Shown here: piece after piece, positions 35,951 to 52,208 of the stretch | How positions within the stretch are numbered: position 1 is the stretch's first letter | Layout of the letters: every line of letters starts with the position of its first letter | From: a virus | Taxonomy: Duplodnaviria; Caudoviricetes | Reading direction: 5' to 3' (one strand) | DNA: 53,318 nucleotides | IMG/VR virus record: IMGVR_UViG_3300006803_000024 | Location: 1 to 53,318 of that record | Program-made: the position numbers and the translations under genes | Notes under the pieces: model-generated | Told to the model about the DNA's origin: nothing | Database searches by the model: none | What the model saw: only the letters and a program-made list of their open reading frames with translations

Positions 35951-36949
35951 TTATGTTCGACTTCCATCGTCGTGGAAGTAGTTTTTGCGTTGTTCACAAA
36001 CCGAAAAAGCAGGACAGTATGGACATGCCTTGACTTCACCAGGGACGGTGACGACTGCGCCTTTGCCTTTGTCCTTGAGCCAAAGCTGTGCATCAGCTTC
36101 ATTGTCAAAGTTCTTCTGGCATTTACCACCGGCCTTGGCCGTTGATTCGTTGGCGTAGTATTTGTACTGAGGCTCGGACTGCCACAGTTCTTTGTCAGTG
36201 CATTGCACCATCTTCTCTTGGCTCAGACCAGCATTCTGAATGATGTGGTCGATCTTGCCATTGACCCAATCCTCTGTCTCTTTCAGGGACAGCAGAGCGA
36301 ACTCCTTGTGGGGTGTCCGGATCTGAGGGTATTTGGGATCAGCGGTGCGATACTTGACCCAGTCTGTGAAGATGAATTGAATCCGCATCACATCATCTCG
36401 GATCAGGTCCGGCATGATCCAGCGATACATGGAACCCTGGAGAATGTAGTCTTCGTCTTTGTTCCCAGAAGTCCAAGCAAATGTGCTGGTGGATTTGAAA
36501 TCCCGATAGGCTTGGCCGATCAGAAAGTCGAGCTGACCGGTGATGACCAGATCCCGGAATTGCTTGTAGCCACGGATCTCCAGATAGATAGGGATCTCGT
36601 CGTCTTTCAGCTTCTTGGGATCCGGATTGATCCGGATTTTGTCGATGACCTTCTGAGGGTAGTGCAGCTTACGCATGGCCAACTGCCAGTTACCTTCGGT
36701 CCAGGCACGCTCGATCGAGTCATGGAGACCATGACCCATACGGGAAGCGATGATGTCTGAGAGATCCATCTCTTCCATGGTTTGATCAACCTTACGCTTG
36801 AGAATGAGCTGACGAGTCGGCTTCATCAAGGTGGTCACAGAGATCAATTCCCCTGGAGGAGCTTCAGCAGCTCCAGATTTGTAACCGTCTTGCAGCAGCC
36901 AAACGGCCAAGGGCAAGTCGATCTTGTGATTATTGGTTATTTTAACCAT
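35951..36949 (-). CDS. PD-(D/E)XK exonuclease (N4 gp42-like)
   Basis: SRMG..LH, ITGQLD, RDFKST, Y.LQGS.Y, C-terminal CPYC....VC; GGAG RBS before ATG 36949. Confidence 0.8.
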   Translation of the reverse strand: MVKITNNHKIDLPLAVWLLQDGYKSGAAEAPPGELISVTTLMKPTRQLILKRKVDQTMEEMDLSDIIASRMGHGLHDSIERAWTEGNWQLAMRKLHYPQKVIDKIRINPDPKKLKDDEIPIYLEIRGYKQFRDLVITGQLDFLIGQAYRDFKSTSTFAWTSGNKDEDYILQGSMYRWIMPDLIRDDVMRIQFIFTDWVKYRTADPKYPQIRTPHKEFALLSLKETEDWVNGKIDHIIQNAGLSQEKMVQCTDKELWQSEPQYKYYANESTAKAGGKCQKNFDNEADAQLWLKDKGKGAVVTVPGEVKACPYCPAFSVCEQRKNYFHDDGSRT

Positions 36950-37688
36950 TGAGTTTCTCCAGGTGTTTGCCGATTGCTTTTTGGACATCGGCTATGGTTG
37001 CATTTGCAGGGATGGTCATCTCTTCCTTCCAGTTGGGATAGAAGATCGACAGCTCCCCAGACATCTTGATGTGCTCATTTTGGATGGCAGGATCTTCTTG
37101 CCAACTCACGGCTTTCACCATGTGTTTGTTTGTGTAAAGCAAGACTTCCATGTCATCTCTGATGAGCATGTATCCAGCGTCATGGATCTGAGCACACGGT
37201 TTGATGTCCAAACGATGTGGTCCTTTTCGGACAGTAGAAAGGAACTCAGAACCGGCACGAGAATTCAACATGCAGTATGATTGTCCAAGGGCATTACCTG
37301 CTGTACGGCCCTCAGCGGCTGCCTCATACGGTGTCTTGCTGGTTCCCAGCACAACCTGCTTCAGCAGGGGAGTCCGCAATCTGAGACCAAAAGCAAGGGT
37401 GACGTAGCCATCCTTACAGGCTTGTTCCAATTTATCTGCAACCCACTTGTCAGAGACGTGGTACAGATTGTGATAGCTGGCTTCGATTGACTTAGCCAAC
37501 TGCGAGGTGAAGCCACAGTTTGCCATCAGAGTCACATACGTCCCCTGATAGGTGAGAGCAAAGGTGGGAGCCTTCGACTCTTGTCTCCAGTGGGGGTAGA
37601 GCTTCTTGATGGAGTTGACACGAGCGACGTTGTGTTCGCTCGCGTCTACTGTGGAGACAGACTCGACTACTCCATTCAGTTTAAGCAT
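36942..37688 (-). CDS. Family A DNA polymerase, C-terminal fragment (motifs B and C)
   Basis: RQESKAPTFALTYQG (motif B), EGRTAGNALGQS, QIHDA (motif C). Confidence 0.9.
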   Translation of the reverse strand: MLKLNGVVESVSTVDASEHNVARVNSIKKLYPHWRQESKAPTFALTYQGTYVTLMANCGFTSQLAKSIEASYHNLYHVSDKWVADKLEQACKDGYVTLAFGLRLRTPLLKQVVLGTSKTPYEAAAEGRTAGNALGQSYCMLNSRAGSEFLSTVRKGPHRLDIKPCAQIHDAGYMLIRDDMEVLLYTNKHMVKAVSWQEDPAIQNEHIKMSGELSIFYPNWKEEMTIPANATIADVQKAIGKHLEKLNG

Positions 37689-37884
37689 CGCCTACTACAG
37701 CAGCTTTAACAGCCCACATGCTGAAGTCTTCCAGTTTGGTCAGTGCTACAGAACGACGACGACCGTTGGGAATATTGTCGATGATATATTGCTCCATATC
37801 AACGACAGCATTTTTAATACCATCAACAGTTTGGTTGTTGCTTGGATTAAATTTGGGATCGGTTACACTCATTGGTTCACTCAT
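37681..37884 (-). CDS. Small helical-hairpin protein resembling the Acb2/Tad1 nucleotide-sponge family
   Basis: 67 aa; GRRRSVALTKLEDFSMWAVKA; translationally coupled to both polymerase fragments. Confidence 0.55.
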   Translation of the reverse strand: MSEPMSVTDPKFNPSNNQTVDGIKNAVVDMEQYIIDNIPNGRRRSVALTKLEDFSMWAVKAAVVGDA

Positions 37885-39956
37885 TTGTTGAGTTGGGCAA
37901 ACAGCTCATGTCCGAGCAGTTTTTGACCCTGATATTCTATCTCCTCATTGCTGTGGAAATAGATCTGTTTCCCATCGACGATTGCCTTGTAGGCAGTAGC
38001 TCCATCAGGGAGCATCTCAATGTCTGGCATGTGCTCTTTGAAGTAAGCCAATGCACGAAGACAGTGTCCGTCGAACCCATCAGAATACACCTTGATCTTC
38101 TCTGGATCCTTGGTGGTCACTGCTGAAATTTTGTCCTCCAACGAATCGAAGTCCAAACCCACAAACAGCCATCCGGGAGGTGCCTCAAAACACTCTTTGA
38201 TGAGCTTGGCAAGTCTTTGTTTGACCTTTGTGGAACCAGCAGAAGGGATGTTCTGTAGGTTGGGGTTGTTACTGGAAAGCCTACCAGATGCAGTGCCACC
38301 CAGCCGGAAGTTTCCGAACAGGTAATGCCATCCATCGTTACCCTTAACGGCTTTAAGGAATGCCGGAAGAAACGTAGAGAGGATGATTGCACTGGCTTTG
38401 AACTCGATCAGGATCTCCAGAAACCGAATCACTTCGGGATCTTTGGTGTGGTTGATCAGCTTCTCAAGCGTCTCAGCTCCCGTTGCAGGTTGCTTGGTGT
38501 CCGTGTAGTCGAGGACTGGGAGACCCAGGAAATCCTCGGAATACAGGAAGCGTTGGAGCTGTTTAGAGCTGCCAGGATTGAACTTGACAACGGTGTCTTT
38601 TGTAGAACCAAGATCTGCCTTGGTGATCTGCTTGGTTTTGAGTTTGGCATTCTTCTCTATCACCTTTTCGTCTTTGAGTGTGTCTATATAGGACCAGACG
38701 ATTTGCAGATTGTTCATCCGTGCTAAGTTTCCATCCGACTCTTTGTTGAGCTGCTTGTCCAAGGCTTTAACCTTGGCCATGTTCAGGGGCATCCCTGTGA
38801 GCTGCATCTGAATGATGTCGATCACTGCTGGACGGAAAAGCGTCTGGTATGGTTCATCCTGAAGATCGGCAAGCATGATCGGCAAGTTTTTCTTGTAGAC
38901 GTACCATGTGGAAAGTCCGTCGATCAGGTTGTACCGGAGCAAATCCGGAAGAGCGATCAGCCTGATGTCATGGATGTCTTCCTGAGCATAGTTCCCAGCA
39001 AACTCCTGAGCCTGTGTCTTGAGACCCAGCTCATTTCCTGCACAGGAATTGGTGGCCAGATAAGTGATGATCTGTGTGCAGTCCCAATCTTTCAGCATCA
39101 CTTCCAGACCTTCAAGGAGACCCTTTTGATCTAGGATGTGATCCATAAACAGTTGATAAACAAGGACATACACGTCGTAACAGATGTTGTGGTAGATCAT
39201 CTTCCGCTTGAAATTGTAGAAGAAATCTCTGAGCAGTTGACGAATAACAGGGTTCTCAACACGACCAGATTTCTGACCCTCCTTCCCGATGGACGTAGAG
39301 TCCACTGCGAAAGCAATGCCCTCGTGTTCATTCCAACAGAAGGTGATCGTGCCAATCCCAGCATCGTAATGCTTCAGGTCAAAGCCTTCGATGTCACATG
39401 TGAGATCACAATCCATCTCCAGTAGTTTGTTCAACCACTTGGCAATACCAGTTGGCCCCACAGGGTAATCAGCGAACTTGATGATGTTCGATCCCACCAC
39501 AGTGGAGTTACCTCTGGCCCATCGTTTGGTGGACTCCAGAGCCATCCCGATCTTTGCCTTCATCTTGTCAGGGTCATAGAAGACCCGGCCATAGTTGGGG
39601 CAGTAGGTGATCGTGAAGTCTGTATCATACTCTGATATGAAGAAGTCCCCAATGGTGGCATCGGTCTTGGCCTTCTTGGACAGGATCTTGAAGTAGTCCG
39701 GCTGTGTAACGACAAGCATCTCAATGCCTGCTGCCTTGAGGTTGGGCAACAGGTCATCGAGATACTCTTTCATGTCGGCAGCCGAGTTCTTCTTCTTGGT
39801 TCCATCCATGAAGAGGTCAGCGATCATGACACTCTCACCCAGAGCCAGAAGGTGAGGCTGGTAGTAATGCTTCTGCACCTCCGCTGTCTGGATACGTGGA
39901 ACCAGGATACAGATCCTGGGATCCTTTGCAGAGTTGCCGATGATCTCATATTTCAT
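37881..39956 (-). CDS. Family A DNA polymerase, N-terminal fragment (3'-5' exonuclease, thumb, motif A)
   Basis: ExoI CDIEG, ExoII HNICYD, ExoIII YNLID, SGRLSSNNPNLQNIP, motif A GLDFDSLE; AGGA RBS before ATG 39956. Confidence 0.92.
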   Translation of the reverse strand: MKYEIIGNSAKDPRICILVPRIQTAEVQKHYYQPHLLALGESVMIADLFMDGTKKKNSAADMKEYLDDLLPNLKAAGIEMLVVTQPDYFKILSKKAKTDATIGDFFISEYDTDFTITYCPNYGRVFYDPDKMKAKIGMALESTKRWARGNSTVVGSNIIKFADYPVGPTGIAKWLNKLLEMDCDLTCDIEGFDLKHYDAGIGTITFCWNEHEGIAFAVDSTSIGKEGQKSGRVENPVIRQLLRDFFYNFKRKMIYHNICYDVYVLVYQLFMDHILDQKGLLEGLEVMLKDWDCTQIITYLATNSCAGNELGLKTQAQEFAGNYAQEDIHDIRLIALPDLLRYNLIDGLSTWYVYKKNLPIMLADLQDEPYQTLFRPAVIDIIQMQLTGMPLNMAKVKALDKQLNKESDGNLARMNNLQIVWSYIDTLKDEKVIEKNAKLKTKQITKADLGSTKDTVVKFNPGSSKQLQRFLYSEDFLGLPVLDYTDTKQPATGAETLEKLINHTKDPEVIRFLEILIEFKASAIILSTFLPAFLKAVKGNDGWHYLFGNFRLGGTASGRLSSNNPNLQNIPSAGSTKVKQRLAKLIKECFEAPPGWLFVGLDFDSLEDKISAVTTKDPEKIKVYSDGFDGHCLRALAYFKEHMPDIEMLPDGATAYKAIVDGKQIYFHSNEEIEYQGQKLLGHELFAQLNK

Positions 39957-40037
39957 TTTCAACTTCCTACTTATTTTGTGACCATCTCTTACCAAAGAGA
40001 TATAACTACAGTTCAGCTTCACATGGTTTTAGCACAT

Positions 40038-40108
40038 GAGTCGTAGGCGGGAATCGAACCCGCGTTCTACCAAGTCTCGGTCAACGAAAGGGAATCGAAC
40101 CCCTACTC
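40038..40108 (-). ncRNA. tRNA-like element with two tandem T-psi-C arms (not a complete tRNA)
   Basis: On the - strand, AGGGG-TTCGATT-CCCTT and GCGGG-TTCGATT-CCCGC lie in the helicase-polymerase intergenic space. Confidence 0.5.
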
Positions 40109-40120
40109 CGGTTTAGGCAT

Positions 40121-41389
40121 CTATGAAAAATACCTATCTGGAAGCTCTCCTCTGATGAAGAGGCGAGAACGTGGACGGGACAGTGCGACGTACTGGAGAC
40201 GTGCTGTCTGTTCCTTGTTAGTGGACTTACCGATGTCGGCGAGGTCAACGATGACGGAGTCATAGGTAGACCCCTGAGCCTTGTGCGTGGTGGATGCACT
40301 GACCGAACGGAGATCAGGATACCCGTTCTTGATCTTGAAGAAACGTTCCCAACTCTTTGATTGAGAGTAGAAACGTAGGACAGCTTCACGATCATTGTGG
40401 TCTGCGAAGGCCGTTACCGAATAGGTAACACCCGAATTCACATCTTCCACATCCATCATGATCATCCGGATCTCTTCGCCACTGACGAGAGATTTATCCA
40501 AGAAATCATCGGTGATCCGAACAACCCGGACAACTTGGTCCGTGTACAGTCGTTCTTTCCCCAGCAATTCAGCCGACGAGTTGTTCGAAAGAATTTCACC
40601 AACCTCATACGGCTCAGTGTAGGACCGGAGCTGTCGAATGAAGCTGTTGTACTGTATCACACGAGCATTTGTGTAAGAGAGTACACGCTTGCTGGCGTTC
40701 TCGATGAGGAACTCACGTTCCAGAATACCTTTGAGAGTGGTGCCATCGACAAAGTCAATCACACCGGGGACTTCTTTGATCCGGGTGAACTTGCCAGTCA
40801 GAACAGTCTGCTTGGCCTGCTCACAGAGATCCATGAGAGCTTGTTGATCCTTATTCCGAACTGGGACAGTCAGATTTCCAGTATCCATCTTCTGAGAATA
40901 GATCGGAGAGATGTGTTCTTTGACAGGAGCCAACTGGTTTTTATCCCCTACGAACAACACCTTACAGGTCGAGTCGATACCTTTGTTGATGTATTTGAAG
41001 AGATCACTGTTCACCATCGAACACTCATCAACAATGATGAGAGTCCCACTGTGGACAACCCACCGTGGGGTAGGCACGATTTTGACTGTGCCTGTGGAGA
41101 AATTTTCAGAGACTCGGAGGTTCATGTACGAATAGATCGTACCAATCTCTCCAGCTCTGTGAGTCATTGCGTCACTGAGGACGGCTGCTGCCTTGTTGGT
41201 TGTTGCTGTGATGGCAATGCTGTGCATCGTTTTGGTGGTCTGATGCTTCAGGATCCCATCAGCGATCTGGGAAATCAGAAAGGTTTTCCCCGTACCTGCA
41301 CCACCGGATACGTCCATGAATTGATCGGGTCCGTTGATGAACTGGATGACTTTCATGAACACGGCTTGTTGGTCTTTATTAAGTGCCAT
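40121..41389 (-). CDS. Dda/RecD-like SF1B DNA helicase
   Basis: GGAGTGKT, IIVDECSM, VGDKNQLAPV, TTHKAQGST, YVALSR. Confidence 0.93.
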   Translation of the reverse strand: MALNKDQQAVFMKVIQFINGPDQFMDVSGGAGTGKTFLISQIADGILKHQTTKTMHSIAITATTNKAAAVLSDAMTHRAGEIGTIYSYMNLRVSENFSTGTVKIVPTPRWVVHSGTLIIVDECSMVNSDLFKYINKGIDSTCKVLFVGDKNQLAPVKEHISPIYSQKMDTGNLTVPVRNKDQQALMDLCEQAKQTVLTGKFTRIKEVPGVIDFVDGTTLKGILEREFLIENASKRVLSYTNARVIQYNSFIRQLRSYTEPYEVGEILSNNSSAELLGKERLYTDQVVRVVRITDDFLDKSLVSGEEIRMIMMDVEDVNSGVTYSVTAFADHNDREAVLRFYSQSKSWERFFKIKNGYPDLRSVSASTTHKAQGSTYDSVIVDLADIGKSTNKEQTARLQYVALSRPRSRLFIRGELPDRYFS

Positions 41390-44981: not shown

Positions 44982-45154
44982 GAGAGTATCGGTTGGTAAG
45001 GACGACCACGGAAGATGGCCTTGTACCGAAGAGCTTCTTGGTTTTTCAACCACTTACGATATTCTTCTGTGTCCCTCGCAGTGGTTTGTTTGGCCAAATT
45101 AACGGCCAGATTCAGCACTGGATAGCACACGGTACAGAGTAGAGTTTTTCGCAT
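44978..45154 (-). CDS. Hypothetical 58-aa protein not in the ORF track (MRKTLLCTVCYPVLN...QPILS)
   Basis: AGGAG RBS 7 nt upstream; its stop overlaps the next ATG (ATGA); it overlaps the HNH 3' end. Confidence 0.5.
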   Translation of the reverse strand: MRKTLLCTVCYPVLNLAVNLAKQTTARDTEEYRKWLKNQEALRYKAIFRGRPYQPILS

Positions 45155-45497
45155 TGGCTTTCTCCTGATTGCGAGCGTCTCTTCGACGCTGGTTCTCTTT
45201 GTGTGTCACCATCTCAAGATGATCTGGGTTCACACACATACGGTTATTACACAGATGGTCTATCTGCTTTTTTCCCGGCACGAAACCATTCTTGTTCACG
45301 AATGAGACAATGTGAACGGCGACTGTCTGGCCATTTAGCGACATGCGGGGGTATCCTCCCCCTCTTCCGGTGCCTGAATCGGACCCCTGCCAGATGTGAC
45401 AGGGATCCCGTCGACCATTCAGTCTGAAGCCAAGATACCGGATCACGACGTTGTCCATGATCTTCTCATGGATGTCTGTTCTCCGGCACATGATCAC
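45099..45497 (-). CDS. HNH endonuclease
   Basis: CHIWQG, GYP, VH..SF, IDHLCNNRMCVNPDHLE.VT..EN. Confidence 0.88.
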   Translation of the reverse strand: MIMCRRTDIHEKIMDNVVIRYLGFRLNGRRDPCHIWQGSDSGTGRGGGYPRMSLNGQTVAVHIVSFVNKNGFVPGKKQIDHLCNNRMCVNPDHLEMVTHKENQRRRDARNQEKANAKNSTLYRVLSSAESGR

Positions 45498-50795: not shown

Positions 50796-52208
50796 TCAAC
50801 CGTAAAGGTCGAACAATGCTTGCACTTGAGCGTTCTCGCTCTTGGACATGCCTTGCACTTCTCCACCTGTGATCAAAGACTCGATCATCAAAGGTGTGAG
50901 TTTCACCGACTCACGCTCACGCATGTACGCGGCGTAAACCAATGGGAAGAAGTGTTCCACTGCCTCGCCGATCAGACGAGCGTAGACACGAATTTCCCAT
51001 TGAGCATGATCATCGTCCCGCAGATACAGGAATTTGATCAGGTTGCTGATGTCCATTTTCCAGACACATTCGGTGTATGTGTTCAGAGGCAGGACGATCC
51101 GGGCCGTCTCACGAGAGACATCCCGACGCAGGAGTTCCTCGTAATGATCGAAGGAATCGTTGGACGAGCGTTCGATCAGCTTGCGTGCTTCCAGTGCATC
51201 TTCCACAGGAAGAGGTTCACCAGACATCTGCTTGTTGATCAGCCCCTGATACATGATCTTCTCGATCTCAGGGACATAGAACAGACGAACCATCTCCGAG
51301 TACCGGCCTGAGTATTCGTTCAGGTTGGCTGTCCGATGGCGAACCAACTGACGCATGACGAAGATGGGGAGACGCATGTGGAACCGGATCTCACCCATCT
51401 CCAGAGGAGACGTATGATGATTCCGAACCAGATAGTTGATCAGGCCAGCATCGTTGTTCACTTTCTTGGTTCCACGACCGTAGGACATACGGGCCGACTC
51501 AGCGATCTCCACGTCAGATCCCATGACTTCTTTCACTTCAAAGAAACCATGGTCAAGGACTTGGATAGCGTTGGCCGGTTTGTCTGTCCATTCCAGACGC
51601 TCACCAAGTTCAGGTGCTTCTTCCGCAGGAAGAGATGCTTTGTAGATCTCGGCATCAATCTTGGAATTTGCTGGGTGATAGTAGTTCACGTCATACCCTT
51701 GGTGGTGAAGAATTTCCTGAAGAGTGCGAACAACATCAATGAGTTTCCCTTCAGGGCCGTTGTTGTCGATGAACATGTCAGCATGTTCACGAGTCATCTC
51801 CATGGATTCCGGCCCCTCAAGAGGAAGTCGGTTGCAAGCATCAACCCAGATCACATGATCGAAGACTTTCTTCTCCATGCAGGCTTGCCATTCCCGGACA
51901 CGACGCATACCGACGTACATGTCGTTCCCTTCCTGGATCATCTCTGAACCAGTGCGAGAAGCATCCGGAGTGTTGTATGCCTCGATCAGATCACCCCAGG
52001 TAGACCGGAAGTTCACACGATCTTCGAACATTGCCTCATAGGAGTCGTAGCGTTCCTTGCCCCACATGGGCCAGATTGCCTTACGACCGACGAAATCCGA
52101 CGAAGATGAGAACTTGAGTCCCATCTTGTCGGCAATCATTTCGGCCACGGTGTCTTTGCCATGCCTCCCATGACCAATGATAAGTAACTTGGGTTTCTGC
52201 TTATCCAT
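50796..52208 (-). CDS. thyX: Fusion of a dNMP-kinase-like P-loop domain and flavin-dependent thymidylate synthase
   Basis: N-terminal IIGHGRHGKDTVA, GMR..RE, FIDNNG; C-terminal ARMSY, HTSPLE, RQLVRHRTANLNEYSGRY, AR..LP, LRDDDHAQWEIR. Confidence 0.9.
   Translation of the reverse strand: MDKQKPKLLIIGHGRHGKDTVAEMIADKMGLKFSSSSDFVGRKAIWPMWGKERYDSYEAMFEDRVNFRSTWGDLIEAYNTPDASRTGSEMIQEGNDMYVGMRRVREWQACMEKKVFDHVIWVDACNRLPLEGPESMEMTREHADMFIDNNGPEGKLIDVVRTLQEILHHQGYDVNYYHPANSKIDAEIYKASLPAEEAPELGERLEWTDKPANAIQVLDHGFFEVKEVMGSDVEIAESARMSYGRGTKKVNNDAGLINYLVRNHHTSPLEMGEIRFHMRLPIFVMRQLVRHRTANLNEYSGRYSEMVRLFYVPEIEKIMYQGLINKQMSGEPLPVEDALEARKLIERSSNDSFDHYEELLRRDVSRETARIVLPLNTYTECVWKMDISNLIKFLYLRDDDHAQWEIRVYARLIGEAVEHFFPLVYAAYMRERESVKLTPLMIESLITGGEVQGMSKSENAQVQALFDLYG

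Follow-up and report, generated by a model that had tools for sequence, protein, structure and literature searches.

An Acb2-family hairpin gene lies in the break of a split family-A DNA polymerase gene of an uncultured N4-like phage

Sponge proteins, which sequester nucleotide immune signals, are a main route by which phages get past signalling immunity, including the cyclic oligonucleotide-based antiphage signalling system (CBASS), Thoeris and the pyrimidine cyclase system for antiphage resistance (Pycsar). The closest described counterpart of the protein considered here is Acb2 homolog 43 (Acb2_43; PDB entry 9PTQ), a protein of 76 amino acids (aa) whose hexamer is triangular and has three pockets; it sequesters 3'cADPR, the signal of type I Thoeris, and blocks that system but not CBASS (Hadary et al. 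2025, bioRxiv 10.1101/2025.08.24.671296). Its ligand's diphosphate is held by K19, K55, T4 and the H5 backbone, the adenine by L6 and V7 on the N-terminal strand and the distal ribose by H5, and the binding residues of the Pseudomonas PaMx33 Acb2 are given as Y11, L14 and P90 (bioRxiv 10.1101/2025.08.24.671296). Tad2 proteins fall in the same functional class, as sponges for Thoeris, CBASS and Pycsar signals (bioRxiv 10.1101/2025.08.24.671296). A DNA polymerase encoded in pieces likewise has a described parallel: in clade B T7-like cyanophages an essential family-A polymerase is encoded as two open reading frames (ORFs), the separate one being the exonuclease domain. Here we describe a stretch of viral DNA of 53,318 bp (IMG/VR virus record IMGVR_UViG_3300006803_000024, estimated to be 72% complete; the whole stretch is called the window, and positions are those of the window unless another locus is named) in which a small gene of the Acb2 family, the cargo gene (37681-37884, minus strand), sits between two ORFs that encode the N-terminal and C-terminal halves (N-half and C-half) of one family-A DNA polymerase.

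A compact protein of the Acb2 family

The cargo ORF is translated into 67 aa, with the string GRRRSVALTKLEDFSMWAVKA in the second helix, and is recognized as a gene by the ORF list, its Pfam and PDB matches, its predicted helices and its substitution pattern. An earlier note on this DNA had described a two-helix protein of this length here and had assigned it, from a sequence motif, to the Acb2/Tad1 hairpin family; the searches bore out both statements. Against PF24729 (Acb2/Tad1, hairpin domain; Pfam) the protein scored 40.1 bits relative to a curated cut-off of 27 (E=4.2e-10), far outside what chance would give, the match spanning cargo residues 13-61 and profile positions 3-55 of 58, and the same family was carried by 90 of 90 homologues of the cargo protein. 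A phmmer search of all PDB sequences gave 9PTQ as the sole single-sequence match (E=2.8e-4); a profile of 55 homologues aligned with 9PTQ without gaps over 52 positions (8-59; E=2.3e-8) and matched T4 Vs.4 (7UQ2) weakly in helix 2 (E=0.052). Vs.4, which is longer (89 aa), and the PaMx33 Acb2 (8H2J) have PF24729 in common with the cargo protein, which by analogy may likewise form a cyclic-nucleotide-sequestering oligomer. The protein is Acb2-type and not Tad1-type, because its chain ends three residues after helix 2 with no further domain; in Tad1, which shares the PF24729 hairpin domain, a second domain follows the hairpin.

Relative to Acb2_43 the cargo protein is similarly small (63-67 versus 76 aa), and two long antiparallel helices, a loop-helix-2 motif and the diphosphate lysines are common to both. 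The phosphate-binding K19 and K55 of Acb2_43 align with cargo K24, conserved in at least 90% of the 55 homologues, and K60, which is invariant among them (chain numbering in 9PTQ equals the paper's numbering plus 1, as inferred from V8=V7). The cargo protein is a new member of a known family. Literature searches, N4-like survey papers included, turned up neither a split polymerase in an N4-like phage nor sponge genes within such a polymerase; supplementary Tables S1 and S2 of Hadary et al., which cover 4,204 IMG/VR Acb2 homologues (46 tested), may list this protein or a close relative.

The AlphaFold2 monomer, computed from the alignment of 55 sequences, is a hairpin with helices at residues 18-37 and 42-64 (mean predicted local distance difference test score (pLDDT) 88.2), the N-terminal 17 residues being coil, a difference from Acb2_43. 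The earlier note had proposed comparison with Acb2 and Tad1 both by profile hidden Markov models and by Foldseek; the profile part held, through PF24729 and 9PTQ. When the monomer model was compared with the PDB by Foldseek, 0 matches reached E<=0.001, and neither Acb2 nor Tad1 was among the listed rows of the 37 matches, which were weak, unrelated helical ones. For a bare hairpin such a null is uninformative and does not count against the family. A structural search of BFVD had the homologue from phiCB2047-B as its top match (E=2.4e-5), and 18 of the best 30 rows were named 'Acb2/Tad1 hairpin domain-containing protein'. When four copies were co-folded, the interface score (ipSAE) was 0.75, compared with 0.01 for the best of three controls, with a partner pLDDT of at least 77; the three runs agreed in at least 96% of contacts and placed the interface in an antiparallel pairing of helix 2 centred on residues 47-58. 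A calibration with two copies, which is only roughly valid for four, had 20 of its 30 solved pairs above the mark, as well as 1 of its 23 single chains. The high co-fold score may stem from the model's memory of solved Acb2 complexes.

The gene abuts both polymerase halves. As the earlier note had stated, the longest cargo ORF overlaps each of them: the stop codon of the N-half and the first cargo ATG share ATGA at 37881-37884 (minus strand), and the C-half start codon lies within the last cargo codons in ATGCTTAA at 37681-37688 (minus strand). In the relatives a TGAG is conserved at the first of these places with the cargo ATG 6-8 nt downstream of it, and every relative's cargo type overlaps the C-half ATG just as here. 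Because most of the 90 homologues of the cargo ORF begin at the position of Met5 (mostly 62-64 aa), and because of this spacing in relatives, the actual start is probably the ATG at 37872, yielding 63 aa; an 8-nt spacer would then replace the 4-nt 5' overlap, which would be lost, and the 3' overlap would be kept.

The ORF is under purifying selection, as its ratio of nonsynonymous to synonymous substitution rates (dN/dS) was 0.11, 0.13 and 0.23 relative to the homologues in L005, phiCB2047-B and L006, respectively (dS near saturation). Six residues are invariant across 55 homologues. The ORF is of somewhat foreign composition, with a GC content of 42.2% versus 48.3% and 49.8% for the polymerase halves. 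Independent assemblies bear out the layout: the identical 67-aa protein is present on 7 contigs, and the 63-aa form on 10.

The same hairpin also occurs in other contexts, and is therefore a mobile module. SUFG_00048 of Sulfitobacter phage phiCB2047-B, an N4-like phage with an intact polymerase, is 80% identical in its hairpin part; there, however, the protein has 188 aa, with an RyR domain in its N-terminal part and the hairpin in its C-terminal part, and the gene follows that for thymidylate synthase, 17 kb from the polymerase. At L005 an RyR-domain gene and a 63-aa hairpin gene are adjacent and separate, and five of the seven longer relatives are RyR-hairpin fusions.

A DNA polymerase encoded in two pieces

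The N-half (37881-39956, minus strand; 691 aa from the ATG at 39956) comprises the exonuclease domain, the thumb and motif A, and matches DNA_pol_A at profile positions 24-200 (Pfam; E=2.4e-26) and phrog_17 (PHROGs, DNA polymerase; E=2e-106). Its longest ORF, 37881-40022, opens with a GTG at 40022 and gives 713 aa; the 691-aa form is recorded in 11 contigs. The C-half (36942-37688, minus strand; 248 aa) comprises motifs B and C, continues the DNA_pol_A match at positions 199-303 (Pfam), matches phrog_2573 (PHROGs, DNA polymerase; E=4.8e-37) and aligns with the C-terminal part of the polymerases of intact relatives. The split polymerase seen in the earlier note is therefore real, since in roseophage relatives the enzyme is one protein of 871-872 aa. 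Relative to these intact proteins the break falls between motif A and motif B. Read from the sequences, the N-half holds the motif A acidic residues and a D-G-H segment, and the C-half holds a motif B of the form R..SKAPTF.LTYQG (R..K...F..Y) and a motif C with I-H-D; we take these segments to be motifs A, B and C from established knowledge of family-A polymerases. With motif A on one half and motifs B and C on the other, the active site needs both polypeptides. The arrangement differs from that of the clade B T7-like cyanophages: in the window the interruption falls within the polymerase domain, after motif A and before motif B, has a lineage-specific tail and head on its two sides, and holds swappable sponge genes.

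The tail is a segment of 44 aa at the end of the N-half (37884-38015, minus strand) that has no counterpart in intact relatives and is conserved in all split forms (10 tails aligned), and the head is a segment of 20 aa at the start of the C-half (37629-37688, minus strand) that likewise has no counterpart in intact relatives and is conserved in the split clade. C-half matches from L009-L018 align from residue 1, and those of intact forms from about residue 15; both segments are absent from the four intact polymerases compared, and no Pfam family reaches its cut-off for either. All 23 tail-matching proteins end at the tail, with lengths of 686-699 aa apart from a 511-aa fragment and a 964-aa intein carrier. 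Against a representative library of 1.84 billion proteins the tail profile gave 38 matches, 33 of them within eight residues of the C-terminus; the remaining five were long, multi-stretch, unrelated proteins. No intact polymerase with the tail was found among the 23 matches or the 38 representatives. Furthermore, the tail occurred in none of 50,697 GenBank phage records, so that this lineage has no sequenced isolate in that collection.

Two other candidates for tail carriers, the polymerases of Delftia RG-2014 and Stenotrophomonas C121, were rejected; their apparent coverage of 82-100% is a gapped-alignment artefact, and both are without the tail. We also rejected the idea that tail and head are the halves of a split intein, as the H-N end of the head might suggest: the tail does not start with Cys or Ser, tail and head together come to no more than 64 aa, H-N is followed by Val, and in the distant lineage of L043 its place is taken by H-T.

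Other insertions occur in polymerases of this kind. P0116, the 964-aa protein, combines a split-type N-half and this tail with an intein (PF14890), which interrupts the G-R-L-S / N-N-P-N-L-Q segment, starts with Cys and ends with H-N followed by Ser. The N4-like polymerases of L044 (2497-3069) and L036 (2672-3223) are split at a different site, further upstream; the insertion in L044 is a 190-aa ORF with overlapping stop and start codons and no Pfam family, and that in L036 is a 183-aa ORF with a weak AP2-domain match (E=1.3e-4, below cut-off).

Contents of the slot in related phages

The earlier note had suggested that the split may be a protected slot in which counter-defence genes are carried, and that related phages be surveyed for its occupants. 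An IMG/VR scan with the C-half gave 36 loci, of which 12 are split exactly at this site, 1 is cut by the contig end (L015) and 23 are continuous at the site, among these L036 and L044, which are broken elsewhere. A metagenome scan with the tail added 12 further loci, one of them cut and three lying on contigs already counted among the IMG/VR loci. Two distant N-halves, used as scan queries, gained no further split loci, their matches all stopping before the tail. The readable slots thus came to 21 loci, the window included.

These slots hold an Acb2-hairpin gene (PF24729) in 3 loci and a Tad2-like gene (PF11195) in 11, and are empty or reduced to a remnant in 7; wherever a slot is occupied (14 loci), its gene is thus of a sponge family, one of two that are unrelated to each other, which supports the suggested cargo slot. 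Besides the 67/63-aa hairpin protein of the window, the Acb2-hairpin cargos are a 147-aa protein with an extra N-terminal domain in L011 (2008-2451; PF24729 E=1.1e-10) and a 182-aa protein with an RyR domain and the hairpin in L017 (PF24729 E=1.7e-11). Tad2-like cargos of 102-246 aa, longer than the window's protein and of an unrelated Pfam family (DUF2829), sit in the same slot with the same stop/start overlaps in L010, L012, L013, L016, L018, L049, L050, L052, L053, L054 and L055. Their PF11195 E-values range from 2.9e-22 to 4.5e-26 for the 9 cargo sequences scanned; the cargo of L050, identical to that of L012, and that of L054, identical to that of L052, were not scanned separately.

Empty slots measure 10 nt (L014 and L056) or 8 nt (L041-L043), and remnant slots 52 nt (L009 and L046). 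Of a Tad2-like gene like that of L049, the 52-nt remnant retains the first ten codons and the final few, which together read as a mini-ORF of 14 codons with its stop still overlapping the start of the C-half; it is a clear internal deletion of such a gene. The earlier note had further held that the overlaps make the cargo hard to lose; this is contradicted by the survey, because 7 of the 21 slots are empty or remnant.

To place these loci we built a tree of the polymerase C-part by maximum likelihood from 42 rows, after removal of three duplicate contigs; most split forms fall with the window in one starred clade of 13 rows. Nearest to the window in this clade are L009 and L046 (remnant; 95% identical) and L010 (Tad2-like; 93.5%), the identities being taken over 216 aligned C-half residues. 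DNA homology between the window and these rows continues to the N-half stop and restarts at the C-half ATG; as it breaks exactly at the polymerase flanks, the cargo has been replaced between very close relatives with the conserved flanks as borders, presumably either by plain homologous recombination or with the help of an endonuclease. Outside the clade, L018 (split, Tad2-like) groups with the intact Rhodovirinae clade, and L041-L043 (L043, 3364-3501) represent a distant N4-like lineage whose C-part is 48% identical and whose polymerase is broken at the same site, between a tail and a head that are homologous to those of the window. Given these two placements, either the split is old and some phages have lost it, or the block of tail, cargo and head moves between polymerases. 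An apparent +1 frameshift at motif B of the C-half is identical in all three contigs L041-L043.

Several of the surveyed loci have features of their own. Between the Tad2-like gene and the C-half, L016 (2882-3517; the same contig as L051, 3046-3681) carries a homing-endonuclease ORF with NUMOD4 and HNH_3 domains that starts M-L-K, as the polymerase C-half does; the C-half of this contig has an interruption of its own close to motif B, where the longer locus suggests some 40 additional bases. In L052 and L054 the Tad2-like ORF is followed by only 26 C-half residues, interior ones that are 100% identical to the window, and then by unrelated sequence, which could be a chimeric assembly or a rearrangement. 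The cargos of L011 (2008-2451) and L018 (2761-3501) resemble each other weakly in an N-terminal domain that contains a Y-P-C motif (12 of 38 residues identical; E=5e-4 in a single comparison) and has no Pfam family, which may be a common accessory domain on different sponge folds.

Possible roles of the cargo and of the split

We consider that the cargo protein most likely sequesters a nucleotide immune signal as an Acb2-type oligomer. The chains, two-helix hairpins with a short conserved N-terminal segment, would assemble into a homo-oligomer (a hexamer in the solved Acb2) whose inter-chain pockets, by analogy, would bind and sequester the nucleotide alarm signal of a CBASS- or Thoeris-like defence; with the signal sequestered, the defence effector would never be activated. 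For the activity of such a protein the preprint offers, by analogy, a fair prior, in that 65 of 84 tested Acb2, Tad1 and Tad2 homologues were active against at least one of seven defence systems (bioRxiv 10.1101/2025.08.24.671296). The cargo gene appears to be co-transcribed with both polymerase halves, in a layout that fits one transcript, and the layout at the cargo/C-half overlap fits termination-reinitiation coupling; because the cargo stop overlaps the C-half start, ribosomes ending sponge translation would probably initiate the second polymerase half. Within 36800-40200, promoter-like and terminator-like sites were not above shuffled expectation in a simple sigma-70 promoter and terminator scan, N4-type promoters being outside its scope.

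Several observations weigh against this interpretation. The co-fold covered four copies, whereas the solved Acb2 is a hexamer; the PaMx33 Acb2 (8H2J) was recovered neither by the single-sequence nor by the profile search of PDB sequences; and no NCBIfam model matches the cargo ORF, nor either of two slot proteins of relatives. Among the tested sponge-family members, 19 of 84 were inactive (bioRxiv 10.1101/2025.08.24.671296). The 21 loci are related phages, several of them near-identical, so that 14 of 14 does not amount to 14 independent events, and much of the slot pattern would follow from one ancestral Tad2-like cargo that was replaced a few times. Finally, the Acb2_43 residues that contact the base and ribose, T4, H5, L6 and V7, align with D9, P10, K11 and F12 of the cargo protein. 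With these N-terminal contact residues differing, the pocket differs from that of Acb2_43; the phosphate-binding frame of Acb2_43 thus carries over to the cargo protein, the base-binding part not.

The last of these points leads to one alternative, in which the protein is a working sponge whose signal belongs to neither CBASS nor Thoeris (it might be a cyclic mononucleotide of Pycsar, a cyclic oligoadenylate of type III CRISPR or an undescribed molecule) and the F-N-P-S segment forms the pocket. Residues F12, N13, P14 and S15, each at least 90% conserved in the 55 homologues, replace the base-contact residues of Acb2_43, and the family repeatedly shifts its specificity, Acb2_43 itself binding 3'cADPR and not inhibiting CBASS; yet the first Pycsar and type IV Thoeris sponges reported are Tad2 proteins, not Acb2 (bioRxiv 10.1101/2025.08.24.671296), and we regard this alternative as unlikely, though not negligible. 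In either case the protein adds a compact 63-aa subfamily with a conserved putative pocket segment of its own, and is therefore a candidate for a new binding specificity.

Two further explanations dispense with anti-immunity altogether. The hairpin protein could serve the polymerase, by assembling the halves or through a translation that drives initiation of the C-half, a reading favoured by the stop/start overlaps that link the cargo physically to both halves, by a C-half that on reading the sequence has no obvious ribosome-binding site of its own, and by the strong protein-protein surface on helix 2 in the four-copy model. This we hold to be distinctly improbable, because the polymerase needs no particular cargo: of the 21 loci, 7 have nothing in the slot but 8-10 nt or a remnant of 52 nt, and 11 have the unrelated Tad2-like fold there. 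Moreover, phiCB2047-B keeps its 80%-identical homologue 17 kb away from an intact polymerase, and the 90 homologues stand alone, the three with readable flanks (L005-L007) lying outside any polymerase gene. Alternatively, the cargo ORF might be a functionless, decaying passenger of a selfish insertion of the homing-endonuclease type that first split the polymerase. An endonuclease with NUMOD4 and HNH_3 does occupy the same slot in L016/L051, the same polymerase family hosts the intein of P0116 and the insertions of L036 and L044 at other sites, and the cargo ORF has a lower GC content than its flanks; nevertheless, the dN/dS of 0.11-0.23 and the six invariant residues indicate purifying selection, the slot of the window is without an endonuclease, and sponge-family genes in 14 of 14 occupied slots are not what passive hitch-hiking predicts, so that we attach hardly any probability to a passenger.

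Returning to a sponge that acts in anti-immunity, the location carries more weight than the protein, in that an essential replication gene is split at one site across a diverse uncultured lineage, and phages with C-halves 93-95% identical (216 aligned residues) differ in cargo. The split makes a one-gene cargo slot; since relatives have Tad2-like, other Acb2-hairpin or no cargo at the same place, the conserved flanks would act as handles for swapping. We put forward only tentatively, as a proposal that falls short of being probable, that the split is a maintained, exchangeable dock for sponge genes in an essential gene, in which tail and head are recombination handles, sometimes aided by a homing endonuclease, translation of the C-half is coupled to the cargo, and near-identical phages exchange sponges of the Acb2 and Tad2 types according to the signalling defences that their current hosts possess. 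If this is true, the slot would be a simple genomic marker for new anti-defence genes in metagenomes and a natural case of cassette exchange within an essential gene. How a family-A polymerase in two pieces reassembles can moreover be tested on the split enzyme described here, whose tail and head are specific to its lineage.

The phage that carries the locus is an uncultured N4-like phage; its replication block is syntenic with that of N4-like roseophages (Schitoviridae, Rhodovirinae), and the stretch encodes a 3,661-aa ORF. Contigs of runs X2 and X4 cover the whole stretch without difference, but the DNA may itself have come from these runs; in run X8 a contig of 802 bases reaches across the slot and is identical to the stretch there, which also supports the layout, and contigs of run X9 cover the stretch partially. 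One low-depth contig of run X4 (417 bases; depth 4.9) has 172 other bases in place of the 354 at 37587-37940, with diverged flanks, which points to a diverged related phage with a different cargo or none in that sample.

Elsewhere in the window, an 87-nt tRNA-Gly (CCC; ARAGORN) lies at 40040-40126 (minus strand) between the helicase gene and the polymerase N-half; it overlaps the very end of the helicase ORF and precedes the ATG at 39956 from which the polymerase is likely to start. The ORF at 45099-45497 (minus strand) encodes a free-standing HNH endonuclease (132 aa; HNH_3 E=1.7e-13, zf-His_Me_endon E=5.6e-8). At 50796-52208 (minus strand) an ORF of 470 aa matches ThyX (PF02511; E=1.2e-48) only at residues 228-422, its N-terminal part of about 225 residues matching no family.

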